A program made the translations under genes and the position numbers. 47,086 nucleotides of DNA from a virus (lineage: Duplodnaviria > Caudoviricetes): the IMG/VR virus record IMGVR_UViG_3300017747_003232, positions 1 to 47,086 of that record. One strand, written 5' to 3'. The notes below the pieces were generated by a model. That model had not been told where the DNA came from and searched no databases. It worked only from the letters and a program-made list of their open reading frames with translations. Every line of letters begins with the position of its first letter. Position 1 is the first letter of the stretch. This document shows positions 13,637 through 43,051 of this stretch, one piece after another.

Positions 13637-14095
13637 TTAAAGTGATTCCGTCCATATCTTGATCCCCATTGTTTGGTTGCTGACTTGGACCGTGCCAACG
13701 CTCGGTAGCGCCTGACGAGGTACGCCTCTGCCCGTGAAAGTGATCGTGCCACTCGCTTGTAGTTGTGCATTGGATTGGATTTGAACCTGACCACCTAGCT
13801 CTATTCTACCGCGAGGGCGCATGATATGAGCCCTTGTTAGCGTCGTTGAACCTGCAAACTCTATGCTTCCCGTAGCCGCAAAGACCGCAACTGCGACCGC
13901 TCCCGCTCCACCGCTAAGTTCAATCGTTCCACTTGCAAGAATCGTGGCGACGGTGACCCCACCCGTGGCCGCAACGTAATCCCTTCGGTCCGCCCTGAGA
14001 AGGTCGTCAGGGTAAAGATACGAGCCGTAGATGGTTGGGGCGTTCGGCCTTAGCTTGTCATCAACCTGAAGCAGAGGATCGAACGTCAGCGCCAT
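13637..14095 (-). CDS. Virion fibre-like protein with about 20-aa beta repeats
   Basis: ASGTIELSG, ATGSIEFAG, PRGRIELGG and ASGTITFTG repeats. Confidence 0.55.
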   Translation of the reverse strand: MALTFDPLLQVDDKLRPNAPTIYGSYLYPDDLLRADRRDYVAATGGVTVATILASGTIELSGGAGAVAVAVFAATGSIEFAGSTTLTRAHIMRPRGRIELGGQVQIQSNAQLQASGTITFTGRGVPRQALPSVGTVQVSNQTMGIKIWTESL

Positions 14096-14097
14096 CG

Positions 14098-14580
14098 CTA
14101 ACTCGCAATCAGCGTATTCGCTGAGGTCCCGAACACGTCAGGAACGCCTGACTTGTAGAAAACGAGGTAGTTCGTGTCTGGATAGTAAGGGGTGTTGCAA
14201 AGGTACACCCCGGTCGTCGCATCGCTGACCGTCTGGTCTAGCTTCAGGTCGTCGGACGTGCGGAACAGCTTCACCGTGACGCCGCCGAGGATAGAACCGT
14301 ATTGGTCCCTCGTGACGCCCGTGACGCCGAACCGACTCGCCGCGCCCGCCGCAGGGTCGTAGAACCCCCACTGAACAGCGCGGTAGCAACATCCAACGTC
14401 TGTCCCCTGATCCCCGAGCAGATTCCCGCCGCCCGGCCACCATTCATTAGCAAACGATGGAGGTGCGATAGCCGAAACGCACTCGCGGAACAGCGCATCC
14501 CTCTGGAAGCGGGGTCCCATTGTGCGCCAATCGTCTTCTATCCCCCTGATCGTGTAAGCCCCGTTAATGAATCCGCTCAT
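14098..14580 (-). CDS. Virion protein with a carboxypeptidase-regulatory-like (Ig/prealbumin) domain
   Basis: VTGVTRDQYGSILGGVTVKLF...TVSDATTGVY matches the pattern of this fold. Confidence 0.55.
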   Translation of the reverse strand: MSGFINGAYTIRGIEDDWRTMGPRFQRDALFRECVSAIAPPSFANEWWPGGGNLLGDQGTDVGCCYRAVQWGFYDPAAGAASRFGVTGVTRDQYGSILGGVTVKLFRTSDDLKLDQTVSDATTGVYLCNTPYYPDTNYLVFYKSGVPDVFGTSANTLIAS

Positions 14581-15677: not shown

Positions 15678-16907
15678 TTATTCCGTTGGGGCTAAGACCC
15701 GCTTCCTCCATTCCGTAAGGTTGACGAAATCGGCCTGTGCTTTCTTTCGGTAGCAATGGTCTATGACTTCTTTGAAGCTGGCCGTTTCGTATTCGATGTT
15801 CGCCGCCGCGCCCGCCACGACCTTGTGGAACAAGACAATGATCGAAGTTCCCGACCCGATAGCCGCGTCAATGTAAGCCTTGATCTGAGCTACAGACCAA
15901 GTGCGAATCGTGGAAACGCAAGGAACGTATCGGGCATTCGGGTAAGCGTCAACAAAACTGCATGACTCGGGGGCGGTTGAACTGGCTGCAGTCAGAACCC
16001 TAAACATCAATATGCCCGCCGCATCCGCCGCCGCCTTGTAGTTCGCCGACCACTCACCGTAAGGGGAGCAGAAGATCAAATGCTCGCTGTCGCGGGTGAA
16101 CCCGTTGTCCTTCAAGTAATCACGGGACGCCTCAATCTGCTCTTGGCAGGTTGCTTGGCTTGCGTCCTGAAGCCACCTGGAAGGGCTCCCCGATACCGCT
16201 GTGTGGTCCCGTGTGTGGCCGACCATTGACCACCCTGCCGCATGAAGGGTAGTCAGTTCAGCGAGGGTCATGAAGTTAGCCGCACCGACTGAGCCTGAGA
16301 TAACCCCGACCGAGCCAGGAATCCCACGAGCCGCCATGTATGGCATAGCCGTGTCGATTACTGAATCGTAACCATCGTCAAACATGATCGCAATCTGAGG
16401 GCGCGAGTAGCCCGCGTAGGCGAGGTTGTCAACGTAGATCGAAAGCGTCGTTGACGTGACGGCATCCACTTTGATGATAATGTCGTTCCAAGTGGTCGTA
16501 TCCCAAACCGGGGTGCCCGCCGCAACGGCAAACTTGTTCCGTCCCAAGCGGAACTCATTCCAGCCGGGACGCATGGCGATAATCGCGCCCCACTGGTGGG
16601 TGGTGGCGGCATCGCGGATTCGGATAAAGCCCGAATAGATCGTCGCGGGGTCGTTGGTGTCGGGAGCATCAAGGTAGATGCGAATGAATAGCCCTTTCTT
16701 TGTTGCCCAAACATTCCCTGCGGCATAGGCAAGGAAGAGGTTCTGCCCGCTCCCTGATGTGGCCTTGACCCTTGTGCCAATGGTGCCGTCAATGAGGGTG
16801 ATAGAACCCGTTGTTTGGCTTGCACCTGTTCCCGAAGCGGTCCAGCCAGCAGCGGCGGCTCCTGAGTTGATGAGAACATCAGCCGTGGCTCGGATCGGCC
16901 TACCCAT
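15678..16907 (-). CDS. CE4/NodB polysaccharide deacetylase with an N-terminal carbohydrate-binding-like domain
   Basis: MFDDG, GHTRDH, SPYG and VLFH motifs; N-terminal PGWNEF jelly-roll pattern; TAATG coupling at 16907. Confidence 0.8.
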   Translation of the reverse strand: MGRPIRATADVLINSGAAAAGWTASGTGASQTTGSITLIDGTIGTRVKATSGSGQNLFLAYAAGNVWATKKGLFIRIYLDAPDTNDPATIYSGFIRIRDAATTHQWGAIIAMRPGWNEFRLGRNKFAVAAGTPVWDTTTWNDIIIKVDAVTSTTLSIYVDNLAYAGYSRPQIAIMFDDGYDSVIDTAMPYMAARGIPGSVGVISGSVGAANFMTLAELTTLHAAGWSMVGHTRDHTAVSGSPSRWLQDASQATCQEQIEASRDYLKDNGFTRDSEHLIFCSPYGEWSANYKAAADAAGILMFRVLTAASSTAPESCSFVDAYPNARYVPCVSTIRTWSVAQIKAYIDAAIGSGTSIIVLFHKVVAGAAANIEYETASFKEVIDHCYRKKAQADFVNLTEWRKRVLAPTE

Positions 16908-17323
16908 TAGGCAACCGCCTGAGAGTATCCGAGGGCTTGGCAAGACGTAGCTGTAGCAAAGTCGATGTAGACCCCGAGAGCGTAGGGGACGTTCAACTCC
17001 AAGACCACCAGCCCTGATACTGGGAGCGGGATCGTGGTTGTCAGTTTGGTTCCCGCCGCCGAAGTGTTATCGTAGACTTCAGCCGTCGTCGCTCCACCAG
17101 AGCCATTGTAAAGCATCAATCGCTTGAGGACACCAACGCCAGTCAATGTTGCACCGTCAGCACCGCTTAGGAGCGTTCCAGCGGTGACCATCTCGGCAAC
17201 CTTGGTGACTTCGTTCGTCGCATCGACGCCAGGGCCGACGTTCCAGACATGCTGGATATGAGAGTTCGACTGGTCCTCTGCTTTCACGAGGTCAACGACT
17301 GGGTTGATATTCTTTGTTGCCAT
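16907..17323 (-). CDS. Virion structural protein
   Basis: GVLKRLML...EVYDNTSAAGT...GVYIDF; beta-rich. Confidence 0.55.
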   Translation of the reverse strand: MATKNINPVVDLVKAEDQSNSHIQHVWNVGPGVDATNEVTKVAEMVTAGTLLSGADGATLTGVGVLKRLMLYNGSGGATTAEVYDNTSAAGTKLTTTIPLPVSGLVVLELNVPYALGVYIDFATATSCQALGYSQAVA

Positions 17324-23529: not shown

Positions 23530-25035
23530 TTAGTTTCTCCTGAACATGCTGTCTTCGAGAGCCTTTAGCTCGGTGTCGATTTGGGTTCCCTGTTTGTTGC
23601 GACGGTATATCTTAACGCCGTTTCCTTTGCTGACAGGGAATGCGAAAATGTCGGGGCCGAGATACCGGAGAGCGTCAAGCCGGTGCCATTTCGACTTGTC
23701 TGCGATCTTTTCAGAGCGGTTCCCATCTTCGTCCGTGTCCCGTGAATACTGTTGAACATCCTCAATCAATGAGTTGAGGTCACTAAAGATGACGAGTTGA
23801 GCGAGTCCAGGGTGCTTGCCTTTTTCAATCGTCCGCTTAAACGCCGTCCATACGGTCTGGATTTGGTATTCAACGTTGGAGTCGGATGGTTTATTCAAAG
23901 GCTGTCCAGCAAGCGTCCAGAAGCCTCTCCACCCCACTTCCTGCGCCGATCCTGCGAAGCCTAGGGGAATCTTCGGGAATCCTTCTACTGCTCTCATCGC
24001 CATCTCCCTGAGTTTCTTGATATGACCGGCAGCGGTGTTCTGCTCGACTTCCCTTCCCGCCCCTCCGTGATAGGACCCGAAGATGTAAACCCTGCCCGTT
24101 GCTTCGCCGTAGTCGTCCAACTCTCTAGCTCCAAGGACGGCAGCGGTGTTGTCGGGTCCGAAGTCCACTCCCATGACGAGGGGCCAGTCGTTAGGGATGA
24201 GGAACCGTTTGCAGGTGTTCCGGTCGTGGGTGAAGCAGTCGTAAATCTGGCCCGCTGGTTGGGTGAACTTGCCTTCGTACATCATCTGCCATCTTTCGAT
24301 AGGCATGAGATCCTTCTCGGCTTCGATGATTGCTTTGTCTACAAGGGGGTTCATCCACGAGGGGAACTGATGCAGTGAATAATCAGGGTGGCCTTTATCC
24401 GCGATGTCGTGGATGTGCGTTTTGAAGAAGTTCCACTCGTAAGGAGTTGAGCCGAAGAGTATCCGACCGTAACCCGCCGACCTTGCTGGGTTGAGACGAC
24501 GGCGAAGGGCTTCGTAGGATGCTAACTTATTCTCCTTCTGCCCCACTTCGTCCCATACCGCGCAAACTCCTGTGACTGATTCAAGGTTGGATGAGTCTTC
24601 GGCGTAGGCGAACTGGATGATGAGTTCTGCCGAGAATCCTAAGAGTCGTCTTGCCCCTTCCTCCGAGAACTTGAAGACCGTTTCGGGGCTTTCGTAGAAC
24701 TTCCCAAGCTGGAGTTGTTCCTCAAGCAAGAGTCTGAGAGCGGGGATGGCTTGTTTCCTGAGCAGTTTGAGCGTGGGGCCGACGTACAGCCCGACTCCTC
24801 TTCCTAGTTTCTTGATGAGCGGAGAACAGCGTTGGAGTTCTCTGAGCATCCATCGGCATTGAATAGCGGTCTTCCCGCCTTGTGATCCGGCAACGCAGAC
24901 GACGTTCCTTGCAAAGCTCTCCCAGGCACTTAGCTGACCTTCATGGAACCAATCCGGGGGTGTTTCCGTGTCCAGCAGGGGGCGACCGACCGATTTGGCC
25001 TGGTCGAACATTTTATCTAAATCAATGCCTGCCAA
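23530..25035 (-). CDS. terL: Terminase large subunit
   Basis: Walker A AGSQGGKT, Walker B VWDE, coupling motif GSTP, nuclease motifs GVDFG and HRLDALRY. Confidence 0.92.
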   Translation of the reverse strand: MAGIDLDKMFDQAKSVGRPLLDTETPPDWFHEGQLSAWESFARNVVCVAGSQGGKTAIQCRWMLRELQRCSPLIKKLGRGVGLYVGPTLKLLRKQAIPALRLLLEEQLQLGKFYESPETVFKFSEEGARRLLGFSAELIIQFAYAEDSSNLESVTGVCAVWDEVGQKENKLASYEALRRRLNPARSAGYGRILFGSTPYEWNFFKTHIHDIADKGHPDYSLHQFPSWMNPLVDKAIIEAEKDLMPIERWQMMYEGKFTQPAGQIYDCFTHDRNTCKRFLIPNDWPLVMGVDFGPDNTAAVLGARELDDYGEATGRVYIFGSYHGGAGREVEQNTAAGHIKKLREMAMRAVEGFPKIPLGFAGSAQEVGWRGFWTLAGQPLNKPSDSNVEYQIQTVWTAFKRTIEKGKHPGLAQLVIFSDLNSLIEDVQQYSRDTDEDGNRSEKIADKSKWHRLDALRYLGPDIFAFPVSKGNGVKIYRRNKQGTQIDTELKALEDSMFRRN

Positions 25036-25062
25036 GGTTAACCTTCGTGCTACAATCCCGTT

Positions 25063-25263
25063 ATGGGAAAAGTGGTAGGGATCAAGCTCACTGATGAAGA
25101 ATACGAACGATGGAGCAAGTTTGCGTCCGAGAAAGGTTTCAGGGCTCCTTCAGAAATGTGCCGACATGCGACGAAGATCTTCATGAGCCCTATTTCGACT
25201 GAACATCCTATCAGTCTAGCGATGAATAACGATGAGGTTTTACCCGAAGGGAAAGGGGAATAG
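25063..25263 (+). CDS. Ribbon-helix-helix DNA-binding protein
   Basis: KVVGIKLTDEEYERWSKFASEKGFRAPSEMCR beta-alpha-alpha pattern. Confidence 0.65.
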   Translation: MGKVVGIKLTDEEYERWSKFASEKGFRAPSEMCRHATKIFMSPISTEHPISLAMNNDEVLPEGKGE

Positions 25264-25704
25264 CTATCCTTTCTCGTTCGGTTGCCTGAACAGCACCGGT
25301 AGCCCGGTGTTCTCGTGCATTCTAACGTCAAAATCGCAAGCCTTGAGCGTGGACGTGTCGAATCGCCATTCGATGAAGGCTTCAACTCTCGACCCCATGA
25401 CTCGGATTCCGCCATGTGCAGTCGGATAAACAGTCTTGCCTTCATGCTCAATCGGTTCAGGCTTGACGGCCATCGCCTCAGCCCATAGATCATCCCGCGA
25501 TGCACGGCGAATCTCGTCCATCCTGGCATGTTGCGCTAGTCTCTCTTCGTACCTAGCTTTGGCCTCTTGTTCCTCATAGGCTTTCTTGGCTTTGGCGCGA
25601 TCTTGGTAAACGTCGTCCATGACTCTGCCGTTTCCGGTAAGTCCGCCACCTGGATCGGGGACGCCATAGAATGGAGGGCCAGGGATTTTCTTGTCTTCGT
25701 TCAT
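25264..25704 (-). CDS. Hypothetical protein
   Basis: MNEDKK start, ATGA-coupled to the upstream ORF. Confidence 0.55.
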   Translation of the reverse strand: MNEDKKIPGPPFYGVPDPGGGLTGNGRVMDDVYQDRAKAKKAYEEQEAKARYEERLAQHARMDEIRRASRDDLWAEAMAVKPEPIEHEGKTVYPTAHGGIRVMGSRVEAFIEWRFDTSTLKACDFDVRMHENTGLPVLFRQPNEKG

Positions 25705-25865
25705 TTCTTCACCGGGAATCCTACAGCCCGCATTTCGCCTGGAGTGTGCCTCGGAGGGCAGAACAGCCAGAGCCCATAAGCGATGAGGGGGTCGATGGAT
25801 GATGTGGCGTACATTCCGTTTGACCATCCACCGACCTGACGGAGCAACCAGTAAGGCTTGCTCAT
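25701..25865 (-). CDS. Hypothetical protein (54 aa)
   Basis: MSKPYW start; ATGA overlaps at both ends. Confidence 0.5.
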   Translation of the reverse strand: MSKPYWLLRQVGGWSNGMYATSSIDPLIAYGLWLFCPPRHTPGEMRAVGFPVKK

Positions 25866-26146
25866 TTCTTCAACTCTCTCCAGGCTTCGAACAGAACGTC
25901 GTAGACATTCCTCATATCTTCCGGGTGGCAGAGCGGACAACGGATAGACCGTATGAGGCCTTCCTTGTGCCAAGTGGTCCCAACCGACCATCCTGGATGC
26001 CACATGCAACCGAGGGTCTTCTGTTCGCACTCAAACCCCGCGAGGCGCATGAGTTCATGGAGGGGTTCGATTGGTTCGGGCTTCTTGGGTGGGTCCTGCT
26101 TGATTACGACATTGAGCCCGCTCTCGGTGGCTGTCTCTTTGCTCAT
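25862..26146 (-). CDS. Hypothetical protein with CPLC motif
   Basis: 94 aa; -10-like TAAAAT 6 nt before ATG. Confidence 0.55.
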   Translation of the reverse strand: MSKETATESGLNVVIKQDPPKKPEPIEPLHELMRLAGFECEQKTLGCMWHPGWSVGTTWHKEGLIRSIRCPLCHPEDMRNVYDVLFEAWRELKK

Positions 26147-26223
26147 GCATTCATTTTACACGATATGTACCCGAAACAGTCATTGGCCCTAGTAAAGTTA
26201 GAAAACCGGGTACAATGCAGTGA

Positions 26224-26439
26224 GTGAGGACAACCAAATCACGGGCTCTTGAGGAGATTTTCGATCATCTGGACGCAATCCAGACCATTCTGGCCGCCCA
26301 AGGGATAGGAAATCGCCCCTGCGCAAAGCCCGGTTGCCCCAATCAAGTCATGAGAAAGGCAAGAAACGCAAAGTTCTGCTCGGATCGGTGTCGAAATGCA
26401 GAGGCACAGCACCGCAAAAGAGCCAAAAACAAGGCATAG
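26224..26439 (+). CDS. CGNR-like zinc-finger protein
   Basis: CAKPGCPN...AKFCSDRCRNAEAQHRKR. Confidence 0.7.
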   Translation: MRTTKSRALEEIFDHLDAIQTILAAQGIGNRPCAKPGCPNQVMRKARNAKFCSDRCRNAEAQHRKRAKNKA

Positions 26440-26490
26440 TCACGGGATAGTCATTTCCCCTAGTGAAACGAGAGAACCAGGTACAGAACA

Positions 26491-26748
26491 ATGGACGGAA
26501 TGAGGAAAACGATCAACATCGACGGCGTTATCTACGAAGAGTGCAGCCACGCAGAATGGACCGCAGACAAGAACGCCATCTTGCTTGAAGTAATGAAGGC
26601 CAGCACCTACTACAGACTCAAACCAAGAGAGCCGAGAACCTGGGAAGGGAAGCTGTGGGAAGCGGCAGGACAGATCAATACAGAATCCGGGGAACTGTGG
26701 AATTGGCCCGGAAACATCAAGGTGAAGATAACAGAGGTTATCGAATGA
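26491..26748 (+). CDS. Hypothetical protein
   Basis: 85 aa; YRLKPREPRTW...IKVKITEVIE; ATGA-coupled to the next ORF. Confidence 0.6.
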   Translation: MDGMRKTINIDGVIYEECSHAEWTADKNAILLEVMKASTYYRLKPREPRTWEGKLWEAAGQINTESGELWNWPGNIKVKITEVIE

Positions 26749-26945
26749 ACTGGGATTGGGCTTGCAGGAACCTACTCGAAGGGAACGAAGTCGCAATGAA
26801 GTCAGACACAAACGTAGAGTTCACATCGTTCAAGCTCGTTGGAGGCGAGATCCAATGCTACACAGACAAAGGGGGCTGGCACGAAACCACAGTCAGCCGA
26901 GAGATGATGGAAGCCATCGACTGGTATCTGCCATTTAAAGGTTAA
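26745..26945 (+). CDS. Tad2/DUF2829-like small protein (possible signalling-molecule sponge)
   Basis: MNW..A...LLEG.EVA at the N-terminus and IQCYTD..GW....S.EMMEAIDW at the C-terminus resemble the Tad2 pattern; the WNG motif is absent. Confidence 0.45.
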   Translation: MNWDWACRNLLEGNEVAMKSDTNVEFTSFKLVGGEIQCYTDKGGWHETTVSREMMEAIDWYLPFKG

Positions 26946-27048
26946 CCCTCCCCCTTTTTAGGTCAAAGTTATAGAACGTGCCTTCCCCGCCGACTTCATC
27001 ATGAAAAAGGGGGCTCCCCCTCCCCTCGGTTGAACCTGACATAGCAAT

Positions 27049-27091
27049 GCGCACGTCTCACGGCCCGTTACAGGCGTTGGACGTGCGTTTG
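27049..27091 (+). terminator. Possible terminator hairpin between convergent genes
   Basis: GCGCACGTC...GACGTGCGT stem followed by TTG; the T-tract is weak. Confidence 0.35.
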
Positions 27092-27154
27092 TGTGTGTGG
27101 AGCCCCATAAGCCCCTAAGTCTTGTGTACGGGTCAGGGAGGAGGCTTTAATAGC

Positions 27155-27616
27155 CTATTGCGTCTCTACGTCTTGTGAGACTGAGGTGGATACCTCGGCG
27201 TTATCCTTCACGTCTTGTTGAATCAACGTGAGTAGGTGGTCCCTGGTCTCTATGCCAAGCTCACTCGCAAGAACCCTAGCGACAGACTCCAGAATGCCGG
27301 CGACGCGATGTTCTACGGTATGAGTGATGACTTCTTTGGGGATACCGATGTCTAGGACCGCTTTGGCAGCGCTTTGACGCACCGTGGGATAGATCGTGGC
27401 TCCGTCAGCAGATACGCCCCTTGCCTGGTCTATCAGGATATCGAGCATAGCCTCAGCATTTGCAGCCGCTTTGGCTTTGGCCCTCAGGCTAGGTCTACCG
27501 GGGCCAGGGACATGATTTGGGCTAGGACCACGCCATAGAGTTCCCCCGTGAGACTGAGGCACAAGTTCCCCGAGCTTATCCCCGGGCTTTTGCACTTCCG
27601 ATTGTATAGCGCTCAT
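27155..27616 (-). CDS. terS: Putative terminase small subunit
   Basis: VPQSHGG...PGPGRP N-terminus and RQSAAKAVLDIG helical motif; first gene of the late strand, upstream of terL. Confidence 0.6.
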   Translation of the reverse strand: MSAIQSEVQKPGDKLGELVPQSHGGTLWRGPSPNHVPGPGRPSLRAKAKAAANAEAMLDILIDQARGVSADGATIYPTVRQSAAKAVLDIGIPKEVITHTVEHRVAGILESVARVLASELGIETRDHLLTLIQQDVKDNAEVSTSVSQDVETQ

Positions 27617-27732: not shown

Positions 27733-27927
27733 ATGACTATCATCTGCAACGCTTCCAACCTTGATCATCTGTACGCTTCCCGTGATTCGCTTCGCGCTGA
27801 ACTTGAATCTGCCGAGCGGTGTGACCCTAGATTTGAGCGCTATCACGCGTTGGATCATGCCATTAAGACTTACTTGGGAATGAATCTTCAAGGCAAGTCT
27901 CATGATCCTTGGGACTTCAAGGCTTAA
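27733..27927 (+). CDS. Early hypothetical protein
   Basis: First ORF of the plus-strand cluster. Confidence 0.55.
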   Translation: MTIICNASNLDHLYASRDSLRAELESAERCDPRFERYHALDHAIKTYLGMNLQGKSHDPWDFKA

Positions 27928-27963
27928 TCTTCCCTTCCCTCTGAACTTTGGAGAATATGAACT

Positions 27964-28221
27964 ATGAACAAACGCGAGATTCCAAACGGATACAAACAGA
28001 TCAACATCACCCAAGCCCGGAAACTTTGGGGCACGGGTGCCGAGATTACGGTCTATCCCAATAACGTCAACAGCTACCATGTTTTTGGCGGCTGGCATCT
28101 TGGGTGCACTGCTGATGAGGACCGTCAAGCTGAATCTACTTTTGATGAGTTCCACAATGCCTGGCTTAGCTACCTTGATTCTGAGCTTGGGCGTTATGGC
28201 GTCTGGCTTATCCCTGCCTGA
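27964..28221 (+). CDS. Conserved phage early hypothetical protein
   Basis: GGAGA RBS; QINITQARKLW...FDEFHN...ELGRY pattern. Confidence 0.65.
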   Translation: MNKREIPNGYKQINITQARKLWGTGAEITVYPNNVNSYHVFGGWHLGCTADEDRQAESTFDEFHNAWLSYLDSELGRYGVWLIPA

Positions 28222-28251
28222 CTTTCCTTTATTGATTGGAGATAGAACCTT

Positions 28252-28461
28252 ATGAAAACCCGAAAACCTAGACTTACCCAATGCTCCGAATGCTCGTATC
28301 CATACGCTGGCGACGGTTGTACCAATCCGGCATGCTATGCCAATCCCAAGGTTAGCGACGCTACCAAAGCCATAGGGCGTGAGCGTGACGCCATCCGCAA
28401 AGCTGAAGAAGCCGAACGTCAACGGATTCGTGATATTCAAGCCTCTATGCGCTCGCGCTAA
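28252..28461 (+). CDS. Small Cys-containing (zinc-binding) protein
   Basis: CSEC...CTNPAC; GGAGA RBS. Confidence 0.6.
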   Translation: MKTRKPRLTQCSECSYPYAGDGCTNPACYANPKVSDATKAIGRERDAIRKAEEAERQRIRDIQASMRSR

Positions 28462-28507
28462 CACTCCCTCATTTTACCCTGTTTAAACCTATTAGGAATC
28501 TAAAACC

Positions 28508-29140
28508 ATGAAAACACTAACCATTGAGAAAACTATTTTTGACTTCACTGAACTGTCAGAATCCGCCCAAGATAGGGCCATTCAAGACTACGCTCAAGAC
28601 TTCGGATCTTCCGGTTATGAATGGGAGTTCGTATACGATGATTTTGTGTCCATCGCCGATATCTTGGGAGTTGATATCAAGATTCGGAACGGGGGCTCAA
28701 GCTCCCTGAGACGGGCTATCTACTGGTCCGGCTTCTGGTCTCAAGGTGACGGCCTGGCATTCGAGTCCCATTATCGCTACGCTAAGGGAAGCTGCAAGGC
28801 CATTCGGGCATATGCCGGGACGGATACCGAACTCCACCGGATAGCGGATGAACTGCGTAAGGCTCAAAAGAGGGCATTCTACCGTCTCACTGCCACAACG
28901 GAAGCGGATAGAAACTATATGCGCGTTGAAGTCTCATGTACCGATCACCGGGGTTATGAGGGTTACGCTGAAGTGCCAGACGGCGCTGCCGATGATATCA
29001 CAGACGCATTGCGGGACCTCGCCTCATGGATGTACCGAACGCTTGAGCGTGAGTATGAATACCAAACATCGCGTGAAGCATTCATTGATATGTGCGACGC
29101 TAATGAATGGCAGTTCAATGAGGACGGATCTTTAGCCTAA
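28508..29140 (+). CDS. Conserved acidic phage/plasmid early protein (family often labelled 'antitoxin of toxin-antitoxin stability system'; function unproven)
   Basis: IYWSGFWSQGDG, ELHRIADEL, ALRDLASWMYRTLEREYEY and ANEWQFNEDG motifs. Confidence 0.7.
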   Translation: MKTLTIEKTIFDFTELSESAQDRAIQDYAQDFGSSGYEWEFVYDDFVSIADILGVDIKIRNGGSSSLRRAIYWSGFWSQGDGLAFESHYRYAKGSCKAIRAYAGTDTELHRIADELRKAQKRAFYRLTATTEADRNYMRVEVSCTDHRGYEGYAEVPDGAADDITDALRDLASWMYRTLEREYEYQTSREAFIDMCDANEWQFNEDGSLA

Positions 29141-29225
29141 CACCGTATCGGGAAGTTTGAACGCTTCCCCGGAGGGCCTTAATGGGGCCTTGCGGGGAGT
29201 CTGACAAGACTTCGGAGAATGAACT

Positions 29226-29504
29226 ATGCAAACAGCCAGAACCGAAACTAACACCGTTGACGTGATTTTCAGAACCGAAAAGAAGGGCCAGTTCAAAGGC
29301 GAGGTTACCGCCGTCTTCCCGGGCATGTATGAAGGGCCAGGACGGTGCACGTGCTACATCCATGTGGGCCAGCACGGTACATGCTGCCGAGATTGGTACA
29401 GAGAGACAAGACCAGCGACAAAAGCCGAGTATGCGCCGTTGCTACGTGAACTGCGCTCGATTGGTTACGATGATTTGAGGATCATTCAACGCTGGAGATA
29501 CTAA
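29226..29504 (+). CDS. Conserved phage early hypothetical protein (HVGQH family)
   Basis: VIFR...GEVTAVFP...YIHVGQH...PAT.AEY..LLREL..IGY; GGAGA RBS. Confidence 0.7.
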   Translation: MQTARTETNTVDVIFRTEKKGQFKGEVTAVFPGMYEGPGRCTCYIHVGQHGTCCRDWYRETRPATKAEYAPLLRELRSIGYDDLRIIQRWRY

Positions 29505-29580
29505 CACCGTGGGAGCCCTACCAGTTCCCCAAAGCCTGCGGGGTTTTGGGGAACTCTATACAGTTCCGGAGATAAAATCA

Positions 29581-30441
29581 ATGAAAACTAGCACCGCTTT
29601 AATCAACGCGCCGACACTCAAAACCACGATTCATTGCTACCGCTTTGATATCTCTAGCCCGTCCGATCTGGCTGCGTGGGAAGGGCTGCGCGCCGACCTG
29701 AAAAAGACGCGCCGATGCTTCAACGTTCTCGCCGACCCAAAGGGCCTGACAGATAAACCCATTCGGAACCTTGACGGCCAAACGGTGGAACTCGAATGCA
29801 AACACCTGTTTGAAGATCAATGGAACTCCGCACCGCTTCCCGGATTTGAGAACGGGCTCCGGCTTCATGACTGGTATGAGGGAATTTATCCGAACGCAAA
29901 AATCAAAACCGGCTATTGGCTTGAGCTAACACCGGAGATTCAAGCCATTCGGAGGGACGTTCTAAAGTGCGGCTACTGTGGCAATCAGGAATGGGCCAAA
30001 GACGCGCCGACGTTCTGCACCCAGTGCATCGGGGCCGTACACCTCAAAGAGTCCGATTTGCCGCTTTTGCGCCTCATGCCGGTCGCTACTCGATTCGGAA
30101 CCAAACGGGCTCCACTGACAGAAGCCGAAGCCGCCGAACTCATTCCAGCGTTCGTACATGCCCAAACCGTAAGCAAAGAGACGGCGGCAGGACGTGCCAG
30201 GGAAGCCACATACGTTCGCATACTCAAAGATCGGGATAACACCGTATCGAACGCTAATGACCAATACGACGGGCTCAAATGGATTCTAGACAAGGGCCTA
30301 ACGCTTGAGAATGTAATCTTCTACAACCATACCGGGACGTTCTGCGTTGGCTGGCGCAAGCCCCTAGGGGAAGCCGAAGCCGCTGTATGGTTTGACTTGC
30401 TTGACGGCTTCCCCTTCCCCGTGGAGGTTAAGAGGGCCTGA
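29581..30441 (+). CDS. Hypothetical protein with a central zinc ribbon
   Basis: CGYCG...FCTQC; GGAGA RBS before ATG 29581. Confidence 0.65.
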   Translation: MKTSTALINAPTLKTTIHCYRFDISSPSDLAAWEGLRADLKKTRRCFNVLADPKGLTDKPIRNLDGQTVELECKHLFEDQWNSAPLPGFENGLRLHDWYEGIYPNAKIKTGYWLELTPEIQAIRRDVLKCGYCGNQEWAKDAPTFCTQCIGAVHLKESDLPLLRLMPVATRFGTKRAPLTEAEAAELIPAFVHAQTVSKETAAGRAREATYVRILKDRDNTVSNANDQYDGLKWILDKGLTLENVIFYNHTGTFCVGWRKPLGEAEAAVWFDLLDGFPFPVEVKRA

Positions 30442-30530
30442 TTTTCAAAGACCTGGCCGGGTAACACCGGCCTATATATAGAGACGTATCTTCAGACTCA
30501 TTTGAACCTACTATAACACCGGAGAATATC

Positions 30531-30746
30531 ATGATTTCAAACACTTTTCTAGACATCGCACAGACCGCTATCGACCGCTACGGTTACGATTCTGAGGGGT
30601 TCCACATCTACATTCAAGACGCCGCTGACACATTCTGCGCATACATGGGGCTACCTGGGTTCCAACATGCCGCCGCAACCCAAAGGGCCGCGAGGGACAT
30701 CTACAAACTCGCTGACCGCATCGCAACCCGTGAGGCTGCGGCATGA
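30531..30746 (+). CDS. Hypothetical protein
   Basis: TAACACCGGAGAATATC-ATG start. Confidence 0.6.
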   Translation: MISNTFLDIAQTAIDRYGYDSEGFHIYIQDAADTFCAYMGLPGFQHAAATQRAARDIYKLADRIATREAAA

Positions 30747-30838
30747 CACCCAAACAGACCCGCATTGCAGACACCCTCTGTACCGCTGCCCTTTGCATCG
30801 TGGCCGTCTGGTTGCTTTGCTTCCTGACTACTTTGTAA
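30743..30838 (+). CDS. 31-aa single-TM micropeptide (not in the ORF track)
   Basis: MTPKQTRIADTLCTAALCIVAVWLLCFLTTL; ATGA coupling and GAGG RBS; its stop is the TAA of an octamer copy. Confidence 0.55.
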   Translation: MTPKQTRIADTLCTAALCIVAVWLLCFLTTL

Positions 30839-30855
30839 CACCGGAGAATAAGACC

Positions 30856-31074
30856 ATGAAAACAACCTACGCCGTCCACACTTACCACCCATCCGGGTGC
30901 CGATCTTGCGACACGCTCCCACGATCCAAACGTGAAGCCATCCGGTACGCCCGCTGGTTTCAATCTCAAGCCAAATGGCCGAAGGTTGAAGTCGTGCGAG
31001 TCTCGCCGTCTGACTTTTTGCGCCCGGTAGCGTCTAGACCGACGCTCACGCTCAGAGGTGTAACACCGGCATGA
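30856..31074 (+). CDS. Hypothetical protein
   Basis: GGAGA RBS; MKTTYAVH start. Confidence 0.6.
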   Translation: MKTTYAVHTYHPSGCRSCDTLPRSKREAIRYARWFQSQAKWPKVEVVRVSPSDFLRPVASRPTLTLRGVTPA

Positions 31075-31262
31075 TCGGCACCGCTGAAATCGCCAAGCGG
31101 TTGAACGTATGCCCTCAGCGGGTGTACCAACTCATCGCCAATGGCACCATTAAGGCCCAACAAGGGCGGTATAGAGTTTATTCCGTAACACCGGAGGAGA
31201 TGGAGAGGGTGCAAGCTCTTTACCGTCCCTCTGGACGACCTCGAAAGGAGAACCAATCATGA
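31071..31262 (+). CDS. Excisionase/MerR-type winged-HTH protein
   Basis: IGTAEIAKRLNVCPQRVYQLIANGTIKA with a C-terminal GRPRK AT-hook-like tail. Confidence 0.75.
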   Translation: MIGTAEIAKRLNVCPQRVYQLIANGTIKAQQGRYRVYSVTPEEMERVQALYRPSGRPRKENQS

Positions 31263-31525
31263 CCACCGAAGCCACCTATAGCCGCCTCTCTGATGAGATC
31301 TCGGCCTACTCGTGCCACCTTCACCATACATTCAACGGGGAGGTCATCCAAGATGGCCCGTTCCCCCTTGAAGGGCTGATGGGAGATTGTTCGCTCTCGG
31401 ATTACCGCGAGTACATGGAAGTGGAGCATGGGTACACCCTGGCTTACATAACACCGAAGCCGTCAGCGAACCTACTCGCAACCTGGGTGAAGGGTGGGCG
31501 CAAATACACAATAGCGTTCGCCTAA
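31259..31525 (+). CDS. Hypothetical protein
   Basis: AGGAG RBS; ATGA coupling. Confidence 0.6.
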   Translation: MTTEATYSRLSDEISAYSCHLHHTFNGEVIQDGPFPLEGLMGDCSLSDYREYMEVEHGYTLAYITPKPSANLLATWVKGGRKYTIAFA

Positions 31526-31541
31526 CACTGCCCCATTCTAT

Positions 31542-31571
31542 AGCCCTGTGCGACCCGTACAGGGCTTTTCT
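31542..31571 (+). terminator. Intrinsic terminator ending the early cluster
   Basis: AGCCCTGTGCG-ACC-CGTACAGGGCT followed by TTTCT. Confidence 0.65.
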
Positions 31572-31685
31572 GTGCGTTTGGCACTTCAGATACGGAGAAG
31601 CCCCCTCGGTTTCCCTTGGAGGCTTGTGAACCAATGAACCAATCACATCTTCAGCAGATGCTTGACTAACACCGGAGATTATACA

Positions 31686-31976
31686 TCATGTCCCGCGATT
31701 AAAGCGAACATTTGGAGCCTGTTGGCGAACTTCCATGAACTGCCTCTGGCTTGGGCCGTCAATGGCTTTCGATTCTTGGTTTTCAACATCCAACCCGTAC
31801 ATGTGCATACCGTTGCACTGATCGCATCGGACCCACCCATACAACACCGTTGATTGCTTCTTGAGAAGGGCATAGAGAGCGAATGGGATGGTTGCTAGAT
31901 TCTCGTGGTCATCCTTCCCGCCCGTGACCTTGATTGGCTTTGCGAACCCTTGGGGATGGATGAGTTTCGTTTCCAT
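31686..31976 (-). CDS. Hypothetical protein with CDQC motif
   Basis: METKLIH start 2 nt after the upstream stop. Confidence 0.5.
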   Translation of the reverse strand: METKLIHPQGFAKPIKVTGGKDDHENLATIPFALYALLKKQSTVLYGWVRCDQCNGMHMYGLDVENQESKAIDGPSQRQFMEVRQQAPNVRFNRGT

Positions 31977-31978
31977 CG

Positions 31979-32170
31979 CTATCCGTTCAATGCTGTCAAT
32001 CCAGCACCAGTGAGGAAACCGCCGAGCATTCCCTCTAACACCCGGAACAGACACAACTTGTAGTCGAAGGCCACGTTGGGATCTTCTGATCGGGCTCTAA
32101 CATACGCGCCGAAGTCGATGCGGGCAGCGGTTGCGCCCATGACTAGGATCGGGATTAAATATGTCTTCAT
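31979..32170 (-). CDS. Small membrane protein (holin-like)
   Basis: Two hydrophobic segments; downstream of the endolysin. Confidence 0.5.
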   Translation of the reverse strand: MKTYLIPILVMGATAARIDFGAYVRARSEDPNVAFDYKLCLFRVLEGMLGGFLTGAGLTALNG

Positions 32171-34329: not shown

Positions 34330-34519
34330 CCTCGCGCGCGCACACGTAGAACCGGGCCAATCAGGAAGACTGTAGGAAGTATGGCCTTCCCCATACTTCC
34401 TGGTTTCATACTTCCTGATGCCGATAGGTTCAAACCTCCATACTTACTAACAAAATTGAGTCCCCACGCGCGCGCGCGTATACTTCCTGAAACCCGGAAG
34501 TATGGGGGCATTCTTCCTA
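34330..34519. repeat. Putative replication origin: ATACTTCC iterons in both orientations plus (CG)n runs
   Basis: Forward copies at 34391, 34407, 34438 (variant), 34479 and 34509 (variant); inverse GGAAGTATGG at 34375 and 34496. Confidence 0.7.
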
Positions 34520-36583
34520 TTTCTGGTCCCATCGTTCCTCCCCCGTTTCAGGAATCAGCGTCCATTGCACATCGCTCTGGAACCCTGATCGGACCATCCT
34601 TATTCGTAGCTTTGACTTGAGTTCGTAGATCATGTCTCTGCCGAACCCTTCACGCTTTCCATTTTCGAACACCATTTTCGACGGCACCATCTGGTCTTTC
34701 AAGTAGTCTTTGAGCCACTCCTCGCAAGCGTCACGTTTGCCACGGGCGCTCCTGACTTGTGGTTGCTCCAGTATTCGGTCCATCGTCAGAGTCGAGTCGT
34801 TCAGCCAGTAGAACCCGGACTCTGAGTCGATGGCGTACCCAAGCGGGTCACCCATTGGCCCTACGTTTGACTTCACATGGGCCACACTTCGGACCTCCTC
34901 GTCGTCCGGGTCTTTGCCCGCGTAGAGGACCGAGCGAACCGCCCCGGAGAAGTCAATCGAGCCCATGATCTTATGCAGTGGATTGGTTGACTGAGACTTG
35001 TTTGGGTGCATCAGAACCAACATCGCGCAGTTCGTTCCCCTCGCAATAGCGATCAATCGCCGCATCCATTCTCGAACCTGGTTGGCCGTATTGATATCCC
35101 GCGTGGCTTCGATATAAGCCGTCATCGTGTCAATAACAATCAGCTTGGCCCCGGTCTGTTCGGCCACCTCGCGCAAAATAACCGTACCGGCAGAATCCAA
35201 GATGAACGGGTCAACCTCGCCGGTGGGGTCGTCCTCGTCGGGGAGCGTAATCAGCCCTAGATCGGCCCCCATCTGCTTGAACCGGGGAACGGTAATCTTG
35301 GACCGGGATTGCTCCGCGCTCATAAAGATCACCTCCCCCTTTTCTAGTTTCCTGGCTCCGATATTCCCACCGAGGCTAACTGCTGTCGCTATCGCTTGCG
35401 CAACCGTCGATTTTCCTACCCCAGGATCGCCAACCAGAAGAGTTACCTCCCCGAGGGGTATGTAGGGCTCAAGTAGCCAATCAACGTGCTCTACGGCTAT
35501 CTCAGACGCCTTAGCCCACCCAGTATTGCGTCGGGCCTCCATGACGACCGCTTGGCTCTTGATTTCTGTAACCATTTGGCGCTTGGGGTCCGACATGGGC
35601 ATCATGTCACGACGGATTGCAGTAGCCGCCGCGTGAAAGTCCCCGTGATGTTCAAGTCTGGTGTATGCCGAGAACTTGGAGTAGGCGTACTCTGCCTCAA
35701 ACTCGGTCGAAGTAGAGAAGCACCAGAAGCACTCTCCGTCCATCGTCACCGTCCCCGATAGCCCATGTCCCCGCTTCTTACCGGGGCGCGTCATGGCGAT
35801 TCGGTTACCCGACCGTCCCGACTCCACCCAACCGTAAGCCTGTAGGAGTTCGACTAAGTGTGGGCCGTTAGAGTTATACCAATCGCCCGGTCTTCCGCTG
35901 ACGGCTGAAACGACTCTCTCGTACCGGTGTGACTTGTCGGCTTGGTCGATGCTCTCGCGTTCGTCTAGGAGCCCCGCAGCCGTCAGAAGAAAGGCCCGCT
36001 CCTCTTCCGTGATGATGGGAATATCGGTAACCTTCAGGCCATAGAGCTTATAGCCGGGAGTCGGAGCGATACCGAAGTATCCACCCTGCCCTCTGGTTTC
36101 GATGAGAGTCTTGTTGTCCTTTCGGCAAGCTAACTTCATGTTGCCGGGGATCTCAACATCAGGACATCGGTAGATAATCCCGAATCCCCCCGATGGCGTG
36201 TTCTGGCACCCCAAGCGTTTCAGTAGGTCCTCGTGCCCGTTCTCTTTCATTAGGGCGACGAACGGTTTCCATGCCGGGGCTTCCCCTCGCGTGAATCCCT
36301 CATCGTTCTTTTCAGGAATGTCGAAGTCAATGAGTTCAACATGATTTACCCCCGCGACCATTGCGATTGATGCGCCGTTAGCCCAGAACCGATGGCATTC
36401 TTCGGGGGTTGGGACTCTCGTCTGGAATGGCTTCCAAACGGACTTGTCCCTTCCCAGTTTAACGTCAAACTCTTTCGGGAGAACTCGCCATGCGGGGGCT
36501 TTGGTAGGCATCTCTATCGGGATGCACGAGTAGCCAGCCGCCGTGAGTTCTAAGGCTAGGGGGATCAGACTGCTGTTTGCCAT
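34517..36583 (-). CDS. Bifunctional primase-polymerase (Prim-Pol) fused to a RecA-family (AAA_25/RepA-like) helicase
   Basis: GYSCIPI..TKAP, IDFD, TPSGG and IETRGQGGY; Walker A GDPGVGKS, Walker B LIVIDT, HPNK, GSIDF and HVKSNVGP. Confidence 0.9.
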   Translation of the reverse strand: MANSSLIPLALELTAAGYSCIPIEMPTKAPAWRVLPKEFDVKLGRDKSVWKPFQTRVPTPEECHRFWANGASIAMVAGVNHVELIDFDIPEKNDEGFTRGEAPAWKPFVALMKENGHEDLLKRLGCQNTPSGGFGIIYRCPDVEIPGNMKLACRKDNKTLIETRGQGGYFGIAPTPGYKLYGLKVTDIPIITEEERAFLLTAAGLLDERESIDQADKSHRYERVVSAVSGRPGDWYNSNGPHLVELLQAYGWVESGRSGNRIAMTRPGKKRGHGLSGTVTMDGECFWCFSTSTEFEAEYAYSKFSAYTRLEHHGDFHAAATAIRRDMMPMSDPKRQMVTEIKSQAVVMEARRNTGWAKASEIAVEHVDWLLEPYIPLGEVTLLVGDPGVGKSTVAQAIATAVSLGGNIGARKLEKGEVIFMSAEQSRSKITVPRFKQMGADLGLITLPDEDDPTGEVDPFILDSAGTVILREVAEQTGAKLIVIDTMTAYIEATRDINTANQVREWMRRLIAIARGTNCAMLVLMHPNKSQSTNPLHKIMGSIDFSGAVRSVLYAGKDPDDEEVRSVAHVKSNVGPMGDPLGYAIDSESGFYWLNDSTLTMDRILEQPQVRSARGKRDACEEWLKDYLKDQMVPSKMVFENGKREGFGRDMIYELKSKLRIRMVRSGFQSDVQWTLIPETGEERWDQK

Positions 36584-38236: not shown

Positions 38237-38400
38237 TTGCCCTCCAAGTCCTTGCGGATCATATTCTCGACAGGATACAGGGGCTTCATCTTCATCCTTG
38301 CACCCCATCCCATTTGAGCGGGTTTGGTTTGGATCTGCTCTGGTTCTGTTACGGGGATGTCCTTGTTGTGGAGGATGGGGAGATCGGCGGGGGGCTTCAT
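38233..38400 (-). CDS. Hypothetical 55-aa protein (not in the ORF track)
   Basis: MKPPADLPILH...; AGGAGG RBS; overlaps both neighbours by 4 nt. Confidence 0.5.
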   Translation of the reverse strand: MKPPADLPILHNKDIPVTEPEQIQTKPAQMGWGARMKMKPLYPVENMIRKDLEGK

Positions 38401-38570
38401 GCGGCCTCCTTTTCCGAAGATTCCGATAGTCGTTTGCGGTAGTTCTGCACAGTCCGAACCGTTACGTCGAACTTGACGGCAAGTTCCGCATCGTTGTATC
38501 CCTTGGCGAGTGCAAGTTCAAAGTCCCGCAATCGCTCTCCCGTTATCGCTGATTTACCTTGTTGGGCCAT
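38397..38570 (-). CDS. 57-aa HTH regulator, Cro-like position (not in the ORF track)
   Basis: GYNDAELAVKFDVTVRTVQNYRKRL HTH pattern; first gene of the leftward replication arm. Confidence 0.7.
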   Translation of the reverse strand: MAQQGKSAITGERLRDFELALAKGYNDAELAVKFDVTVRTVQNYRKRLSESSEKEAA

Positions 38571-38638
38571 GAACTTTATTCTAGCCGAGTTGTTTCCAGG
38601 TGATACCTGTCATTTCTACCAGGTTTACCGAAATGCCC

Positions 38639-38667
38639 TTGCATTCTGACGACCGATAGCGGATAAT
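38639..38667 (+). promoter_or_regulatory. Sigma70-type promoter for the rightward arm
   Basis: TTGCAT-N17-GATAAT in the divergent intergenic region. Confidence 0.6.
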
Positions 38668-38700
38668 GAATATGGCCCTGGTGACGGGGCCGGAGAAACC

Positions 38701-38814
38701 ATGAAACGACTAGGAACATCTAAGCATCGACCCTCGCTACGGTCACGCATTGACCGAGCCCTACGAATCCAGGCACAAGCCCGACGATACAAGTTGATGG
38801 ACGGTGCGCGATGA
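38701..38814 (+). CDS. 37-aa basic peptide (not in the ORF track)
   Basis: GGAGA RBS; MKRLGTSKHRPSLRSRI...; ATGA overlap with the next gene. Confidence 0.45.
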   Translation: MKRLGTSKHRPSLRSRIDRALRIQAQARRYKLMDGAR

Positions 38815-42039: not shown

Positions 42040-42557
42040 GCGAAGTTAAACGAAGCTGGAAGCGCCCACTCAAGCAATTGCTGGGCAGGCATCTTAAACC
42101 GAGTAAGGATTCTGATTGCTGGGAATGGCAGGCATACCGGAATCCGAAAACCGGATACGGATACTACACTGTTGACGGGACAAGGAAGCCTGTTCACCGA
42201 CTAATATTCGAGATATATAATGGCCCGATTCCAACTGGAATGTTTGTCTGTCATAGGTGCAATAACAGGCGGTGCGCGAATCCCGCTCACCTATATGCCG
42301 GGACAGCGAAAGACAACGTTCACGACGCCATCAGGTGTGGCGCATTTGACAAGGTGCTTGAACAGGCGCGAGTGAATTTCTCAAAGAAATGGCACGAACG
42401 CAGCTCGCAAACCCACTGCAAGCGCGGGCATGAGTTATCCGGCGACAACATTCGGGTGAACGATAAGGGGCACCGATGGTGCATCGCTTGCGCAAAACTT
42501 TACAGACAGCAATATCAAGCGGCCTATAGAGCCGGAGCCAGAAGGAGATCACTATGA
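42036..42557 (+). CDS. HNH homing endonuclease with a C-terminal zinc-binding domain
   Basis: CWEW..GYG, VHRL, VCHRCNNRRCANPAHL..GT.KDN..D and THCKRGH...CIAC. Confidence 0.85.
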   Translation: MSEVKRSWKRPLKQLLGRHLKPSKDSDCWEWQAYRNPKTGYGYYTVDGTRKPVHRLIFEIYNGPIPTGMFVCHRCNNRRCANPAHLYAGTAKDNVHDAIRCGAFDKVLEQARVNFSKKWHERSSQTHCKRGHELSGDNIRVNDKGHRWCIACAKLYRQQYQAAYRAGARRRSL

Positions 42558-43051
42558 CGCTGTATGAAATCACGGAAGACATCCTAGACCTAAAAAGCAA
42601 ATACGAATCGGGAGAAATCTCGGAAGAGGCTTTCGAGGACACCCTATCATCACTTCCAGTGGAAGAGAAACTTGAGTCAATCGCCAAGCTGATCCGAACA
42701 TGGGAAGCCGAGGGGGATGCACTGAAGGCCGAGGCCAAGAAGTTCTCTGACAGAGCTTCTGTGGCGTTCAACGGTGCTGACCGGCTCAAAGCTCGGGTGC
42801 AATCGTTCCTCGCGTCTACGGAAGCTACAGAGGCCAATGCGGGGCTATTCAAGTTCCGGCTCGTCAAGAACGGTGGCAAGGCTCCTCTGGAGTTCTTCGC
42901 CAACGCCCCCGACCCCAGCCAAGCAGACCCGAAACTTACGAATCTGCGCTACGAGTTCAACAAAGATGCCATCCGCGCCAAGCTGGAAGCAGGGGAAGAG
43001 ATTCCTTGGGCCAAGATCGGAGAGCGTGGAACGCATGTGAGGTTATTGTAA
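42554..43051 (+). CDS. Siphovirus Gp157-family (Gam-like) protein
   Basis: MTLYEIT, coiled coil, KNGGKAPL and DAIRAKLEAGEEIPWA...G..VRL. Confidence 0.8.
   Translation: MTLYEITEDILDLKSKYESGEISEEAFEDTLSSLPVEEKLESIAKLIRTWEAEGDALKAEAKKFSDRASVAFNGADRLKARVQSFLASTEATEANAGLFKFRLVKNGGKAPLEFFANAPDPSQADPKLTNLRYEFNKDAIRAKLEAGEEIPWAKIGERGTHVRLL

Follow-up and report, generated by a model that had tools for sequence, protein, structure and literature searches.

The uncultured virus record IMGVR_UViG_3300017747_003232 (Duplodnaviria; Caudoviricetes) was analysed over its full 47,086 nucleotides (the window), which represent a complete, circularly permuted genome (123-bp overlap). It contains twelve exact copies of the octamer TAACACCG, all located on the plus strand between positions 29138 and 31674, with no copy elsewhere on either strand. 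The twelve coordinates listed in an earlier note on this DNA were exact on recount. Except for its last copy, this array lies within an island of small plus-strand genes, and the strict polarity claimed for it holds, since all twelve copies are on the sense strand of this operon. The phage is podophage-like, with an SU10-like portal and adaptor. In addition, family scans of the open reading frames (ORFs) found terL, the capsid, a CHAP endolysin, a Prim-Pol/helicase, SSB and a Gam-like protein. Neither an integrase nor an RNA polymerase was among the ORFs in these scans, and no polymerase other than the Prim-Pol was found. Nor do the real ORFs contain the HExxH motif of a SprT-like gene; this string occurs only twice in the six frames, both times in frames of at most 35 codons.

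The octamer array and its placement

In 100 dinucleotide shuffles of the genome, TAACACCG occurred 0.92 times on average and at most three times, compared with the twelve copies observed. Among the 8-mers of the genome it ranks first for clustering with a score of 28.4, and the runner-up (12.9) overlaps it. The 6-mer TAACAC occurs 15 times on the plus strand, always within 28459-32036, and twice on the minus strand elsewhere. One-mismatch copies amount to 38 genome-wide against a mean of 25, which is little above chance once the twelve exact copies are removed. Of the four flanking one-mismatch copies proposed earlier, those at 31523, 31842 and 32036 stand, whereas 28459 (TAACACTC) carries two mismatches; a further one-mismatch copy lies at 29589. 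The base following the word is G in seven copies, T in four and A in one, as previously reported, and never C, while the base before it is never T. GGAG follows five copies on the 3' side; otherwise, the bias in the flanks is weak and the flanks are unrelated. The spacing had been described as irregular. However, the gaps, with a mean of about 230 bp and a coefficient of variation of 0.46, are more even than expected from random placement (P=0.0045), which is partly because the copies mark gene ends. No helical phasing of the twelve copies was found.

Table 1. Positions of the octamer copies, the island and further genes referred to in the text
Feature	Position	Strand	Remarks
Copy 1	29138..29145	+	TAA is the stop of the 210-aa gene
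Copy 2	29249..29256	+	within 92-aa gene (T-N-T-V), variable N-terminus
Copy 3	29502..29509	+	TAA is the stop of the 92-aa gene
Copy 4	29927..29934	+	within 286-aa gene (L-T-P)
Copy 5	30237..30244	+	within 286-aa gene (D-N-T-V)
Copy 6	30462..30469	+	intergenic; loop and 3' arm of a GGCCGG/CCGGCC hairpin
Copy 7	30514..30521	+	intergenic; runs into GGAG ribosome-binding site of gene 30531
Copy 8	30836..30843	+	stop of 31-aa gene; runs into GGAG site of gene 30856
Copy 9	31061..31068	+	end of 72-aa gene (V-T-P), 2 bases 5' of the ATG of the helix-turn-helix (HTH) gene
Copy 10	31186..31193	+	within HTH_17 gene (V-T-P)
Copy 11	31449..31456	+	within 88-aa gene (I-T-P)
Copy 12	31667..31674	+	past terminator; ends 11-codon ORF; overlaps weak sigma70-like site; then GGAG and 4-codon ORF
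Fringe near-copies	28459..32043	+	28459 (two mismatches, at stop); 29589, 31523 (at stop), 31842 and 32036 (one mismatch each)
Island of 11 small genes	27733..31525	+	probably early; between putative terS and lysis genes
210-aa gene	28508-29140	+	phrog_5162; homologues in terminal regions of other phages
92-aa gene	29226-29504	+	family of 2389 clusters at E<=0.001
286-aa gene	within island	+	phrog_26133; homologues in terminal regions of other phages
HTH_17 (excisionase/MerR-like) gene	31071..31262	+	candidate reader
Intrinsic terminator-like hairpin	31542..31572	+	closes operon
Putative terminase small subunit (terS)	27155..27616	-	by synteny only, no family match; divergent from island
Ribbon-helix-helix (RHH)-like ORF, 66 aa	25063..25263	+	candidate reader, weak structural lead; between putative terS and terL
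Prim-Pol/RepA-like helicase fusion	34517..36583	-	PF09250 and AAA_25
Mu Gam-like/Gp157 end-protection protein	42554..43051	+	family match

Half of the copies (6/12) are placed at gene junctions: three at the stops of real genes, two running into GGAG (one copy does both), one in plain intergenic sequence and one at a relic junction at 31667. The remaining six lie in genes, and each gene from 28508 onward has a copy inside it or at its edge. Four copies had been said to supply a TAA stop, which holds for 29138, 29502 and 30836; the fourth, at 31667, ends only an 11-codon ORF (31634-31669) past the terminator. This relic-like junction (31634-31702) consists of the 11-codon ORF, copy 12, GGAG and a 4-codon ORF. 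It perhaps represents what is left of deleted genes, or else a promoter that fires antisense to the lysis genes.

Evidence for selection at the nucleic-acid level

The six in-gene copies occur in two codon phases, and the earlier claim that selection acts on the nucleic acid and not on the protein is borne out by resampling. When synonymous codons were resampled in the eleven island genes, 0.17 in-gene copies were expected compared with the six observed, a number reached in none of 3000 runs. The homologues of the 286-amino-acid (aa) protein provide further evidence. At copy 4, 18 of 24 homologues have Q at the L position and one of 24 has L, and at copy 5, homologues mostly have K-A-I in place of N-T-V, with N in one of 24. 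Both residue changes are needed to spell the word. Copy 2 lies in the variable N-terminus of the 92-aa protein and therefore offers little evidence either way. The word may be kept even at the cost of amino-acid changes, and selection acts at the level of the nucleic acid.

An origin of the array by chance, from codon bias or a protein repeat, or through an assembly artefact can be regarded as practically negligible, given the shuffles, the codon resampling, the spacing and the residue data. Such an origin could draw on the facts that the word was picked after the fact and that it clusters in coding repeats in other sequences. Against this, no other 8-mer of the genome comes close to its clustering score, the flanks are unrelated, and the copies fall into two codon phases as well as into non-coding sequence. 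The sequencing runs matching the window comprised one DNA run, possibly the source sample, with no RNA run listed. An independently assembled contig of sequencing run X1 (possibly the source sample) spans the island without any difference, which speaks against an assembly artefact. In the same run, copy 6 is kept in a 151-base contig of a different genotype with a different upstream context, a weak indication since the run may be the source sample. The X1 contig over 22434-34235 is about 30% deeper than its neighbours (81.5 vs 61 and 63.5), possibly due to terminal redundancy or strain mixing; this depth was not used as evidence. The array is real, strongly selected and one-way, and it is known from a single uncultured phage.

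A signal at the DNA level is favoured by the fact that the array passes the terminator of the operon. Beyond the terminator, one exact and two one-mismatch copies are found, compared with about 0.2-0.3 one-mismatch copies per kb elsewhere, and one of these copies is antisense to a minus-strand gene, which also favours DNA over mRNA. Alternatively, the word may act on the early mRNA as UAACACCG, either as a tag for cleavage by a sequence-specific endoribonuclease or for decay, or as a site for an RNA-binding antiterminator or translational repressor, which we consider quite improbable. This would suit the location of all in-operon copies on the sense strand with one in or beside each gene from 28508 on, and cleavage at such evenly spaced sites would leave message fragments of at most 425 nt. 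TAACA is also mildly depleted in other genes (P about 0.03), though on both strands. Folded with 12-base flanks, seven of the twelve copies place the word inside a hairpin loop. However, this enclosure is not significant against flank swaps (P 0.45-0.60) or planted controls (P 0.05-0.20); boxB-like hairpins of N-type antitermination display their word in a conserved stem-loop. Moreover, the copies continue past the terminator, no ribonuclease was found in the family scans, and Rfam gave no matches. The absence of the word from other mRNAs is uninformative, with 0.84 copies expected. The RNA antitermination or processing tag put forward in the earlier note gains no support from folding, and one exact and two near copies lie past the terminator. 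Integron attC sites, which pair a TAAC core with an inverted GTT core downstream, were rejected as a candidate, as the island contains no reverse TAACAC and no matching long inverted repeat was among the 25 longest listed.

Genome entry, host and related genomes

The island is probably located near the entering end of the genome and would be the first to enter and to be expressed. Its description as the probable first-injected region can be kept as probable, based on synteny and on homologues of the 210-aa and 286-aa genes, which in named phages are placed within terminal repeats or close to the genome ends. For the predicted fold of the 286-aa protein (pLDDT, the predicted local distance difference test score, of 90), there was no PDB match at E<=0.001, and the only match was an uncharacterised viral homologue. 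No Pfam family was found in ten homologues of the 92-aa protein.

The host phylum is probably Armatimonadota, as suggested by gene similarity. Three of five terL matches in genomes belong to this phylum, one of them on a complete chromosome, and two of five to other phyla. Prophage-like regions with several common structural genes were found in three Armatimonadota genomes (G376, G215 and G306). Since the identities are only 22-48%, the assignment is probable for the phylum and does not reach the species level.

If the island enters first, the word may be a directional signal for an enzyme tracking the entering end. This could be a Chi-like site for a host AddAB/AdnAB, read as CGGTGTTA on the minus strand, or a series of pause or re-loading marks for a virion ejection motor. 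Such a signal appears rather unlikely, although several observations agree with it. The word is an exact asymmetric octamer of strict polarity, the 3' side of which would face the end inferred from synteny, and its siting between replication/lysis and terminase genes matches that of lambdoid Chi clusters as far as they are described in the available part of PMC3784561. The phages LLS and MD8 have polarised Chi sites clustered at a genome end, according to the accessible portion of PMC12315714. The AddAB/AdnAB-type PD-(D/E)XK_1 nuclease domain, which is not specific to AddAB, was found in all five candidate host genomes and RecC in none of them. Furthermore, a motor taking over beyond a first stretch would fit the lack of sites in the first 1.4 kb of the island as well as the even spacing.

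The genomes of the probable host phylum do not bear out a Chi signal. In their hosts, Chi-like words are as a rule over-represented and frequently polarised (PMC8022716, in the part available). However, none of 201 Armatimonadota genomes showed a Chi-like abundance, with a maximum of 43 per Mb compared with about 219 per Mb for E. coli Chi, the host species itself being unassigned. Most of the 201 genomes were below the reversed-word control, and G215, G376 and G306 likewise lacked over-representation. There was no replichore skew in the complete chromosomes G001 (32+/34-) and G215 (20+/34-, interleaved); in a 400-kb sample of each, the strand counts were 2:3 and 8:2, and the GC skew was noisy. 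Accordingly, neither the Chi mimic nor the host half of the translocation signal resembling FtsK-orienting polar sequences (KOPS), both suggested earlier, is supported in the probable host phylum. The similarity to Caulobacter chi (GCGGTGGT, as given in the consulted part of PMC5443536) is limited to the 5-mer CGGTG noted before; the base at the first G of chi is never G in the twelve copies. CGGTG ranks 10th and 17th of 1024 on the G-rich strand, where G-rich words rank high by construction. The phage also encodes a Gam-like protein, and lambdoids with RecBCD inhibitors avoid Chi, these inhibitors being of other families (PMC3784561, same part). In addition, the large ejection-like protein is present at 25% identity in the complete relative G202, which has no array.

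No second genome with the array was found among the relatives and loci compared. G202 shows the same layout of terS, island, HTH gene and lysis genes and an RHH-like ORF between terS and terL, with different island genes and no enriched word. In the closest relative by capsid (L024, 73%), the order is lysis-terS-terL and there is no island at that place. Close homologues exist for terL (P0002, 87%) and for the Prim-Pol (P0113-P0115, 56-60%). No strand carried more than one copy of TAACACCG in 16 early-gene loci, 80 terL loci, 80 Prim-Pol loci and five whole virus records, and 16 stretches of prophage regions contained no copy. A pair-pattern scan covering 7 of 64 parts of the viral collection yielded 121 loci, 80 of them with full flanks, and the 25 richest loci inspected were coding tandem repeats. 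Two longer patterns gave five and two loci with one copy each and no protein similarity, and blastn of the island against named phages gave no match. When 301 loci of at least 4 kb were searched generically for 8-mers that are both dispersed and polarised, seven passed: three were repeats in coding sequence, two were repeats of promoters or start sites, and two were cos-end clusters of the CCCTGG type. The word and its arrangement were not found described in the literature covered, subscription papers and supplements being outside its scope.

Priming sites for the phage Prim-Pol/helicase, which would form a dispersed one-strand origin, are a highly doubtful alternative. The sole polymerase found in the phage is a Prim-Pol with a fused RepA-like helicase. 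De novo DNA synthesis by the NrS-1 Prim-Pol begins at an asymmetric octamer, TTTGGTTA, whose last four bases are common to CGGTGTTA (PMC8718748, available part). The resemblance thus lies in an asymmetric 8-mer ending in GTTA and in the presence of a Prim-Pol-helicase (PMC8718748 and PMC8775771, available parts). However, only 4/8 positions match the NrS-1 octamer, no NrS-1 structure was matched by the protein at E up to 1, and the helicase is of a different class. None of the 80 Prim-Pol loci held more than one copy per strand, and both G202, whose Prim-Pol is 41% identical (whole record), and G203 lack the word and any comparable array. In addition, the origin-like cluster at the Prim-Pol loci L252 and L253 is compact and adjoins the gene. 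There, TACTATCA occurs six times in about 300 bp shortly after the Prim-Pol gene (L253:11988-12285, same in L252), which looks like an iteron origin.

Several observations were made alongside these searches. One strand carries 23 and 20 copies of CCCTGG, and the other none, in Stenotrophomonas phage Bhz60 (L015:6900-11520) and Clavibacter phage 33 (L013:6960-11310), respectively. This 6-mer lies in an end-proximal operon with its 3' side toward the end and is possibly a Chi-like word. In other phages or prophage-like regions, start-site or promoter cassettes are repeated between small genes (L001:8474-11456; L003:6209-9005; L120:2155-6097; L374:5418-9290). Within the window, a second block of small plus-strand genes (25050-27150) splits terS from terL; it includes a treble-clef zinc-finger-like ORF (26224), and two copies of a 37-bp repeat lie at 26178 and 26449. 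A virion-region gene on the minus strand (15678-16943) has a polysaccharide deacetylase domain, and a tRNA-Arg called by ARAGORN over structural ORFs (14064-14142, minus strand) is probably spurious.

A stoperator-like reading and its known counterparts

We tentatively favour, as a possible explanation, that the copies are stoperator-like roadblock sites for a phage DNA-binding protein. A single protein, probably encoded by the phage, would bind the twelve co-oriented copies as one-way DNA sites, and the bound protein would stall or block the host RNA polymerase every few hundred bases. As a result, the operon that is probably expressed first would be turned down once it has acted. First entry and expression, readout at the DNA level, a phage-encoded reader and repression are the parts of this reading that we infer. 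The two internal copies that fill the longest gene and the even spacing fit a signal recurring along a transcription unit. The scarcity of the word in Armatimonadota chromosomes suits an operator private to the phage and not a host signal. Candidate readers are the HTH_17 protein (31071), the RHH-like ORF (25063), the HTH protein at 38397, a predicted winged-helix protein (40920) and a ParB-like protein (179). The first of these takes up the earlier proposal of direct-repeat sites for the local Xis-like HTH, which may apply. The RHH-like ORF is directly 3' of a sigma70-like promoter (25029-25263 together) and is probably leaderless. At 38397-38720, the small HTH gene and a promoter-like sequence lie where the two middle operons diverge, with no partner repressor seen.

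Several points weigh against the roadblock reading. The first 1.4 kb of the island, comprising four genes and presumably the main promoter, has no exact or one-mismatch copy on the plus strand, although an operator would be expected there. The other plus-strand operon (38.8-47 kb) holds no copy, and in G202 an HTH-like gene at the corresponding site and an RHH-like gene occur without any array. A small repressor would not usually require all 8 bp to be invariant, and the repeats bound by small MerR-like proteins are usually close together. The family scans of the ORFs, in which no dedicated model was searched, found neither a two-domain repressor of the stoperator type nor an integrase. Comparison linked the word to no gene, the islands of close relatives being outside this comparison.

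It is poorly understood how phages that lack an RNA polymerase of their own time the entry of their genome and shut down their first genes. A word that is exact, evenly spaced and confined to one strand offers a defined probe for this, and sites open to recoding or inversion. A phage repressor as the reader would mean that polar roadblock control also occurs outside temperate mycobacteriophages. Were the word read by a host helicase-nuclease, it would be a Chi-like signal without high abundance in the host chromosomes sampled, and with the Prim-Pol as the reader, a new priming specificity would be defined.

Among known systems, the Chi sites of LLS and MD8 resemble the array as exact, polarised octamers close to a probable genome end and between the genes for replication and those for the terminase (PMC12315714, accessible portion). 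However, they span the genome, whereas no copy lies outside 2.5 kb here; the array is about nine times denser than LLS Chi, and this phage has a Gam-like gene. The injection-stop region of T5 first-step transfer, an in-silico proposal (bioRxiv 10.1101/866236, in the part seen), likewise has repeated cis sites in DNA thought to enter first. Unlike the single word that runs through coding genes here, the T5 sites are non-coding nested repeats and DnaA-like boxes.

The stoperators of Cluster A mycobacteriophages such as L5 and TipsytheTRex are asymmetric, dispersed and oriented with transcription, with many sites and several at gene junctions (PMC9283540, available part). The array shares this asymmetry and orientation and has several copies at junctions. 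Stoperators are sited in promoters and short intergenic spaces; here, half of the copies are at junctions and half in genes, and one overlaps a weak promoter-like match. In contrast to the 13-bp stoperators with more than 20 sites genome-wide (PMC9283540, same part), the array has an invariant 8 bp and 12 sites in one 2.5-kb operon. The stoperator repressor combines an HTH and a Stoperator domain in a temperate phage, and the scans of this genome returned no protein of that kind. The array works most like stoperators yet fails membership of that family. It is possible, albeit somewhat doubtful, that it represents an undescribed cis-acting track, in which a private one-way octamer recurs about every 230 bp in the first-entering genes and is read by a phage protein that meters DNA entry or silences the pre-early operon.

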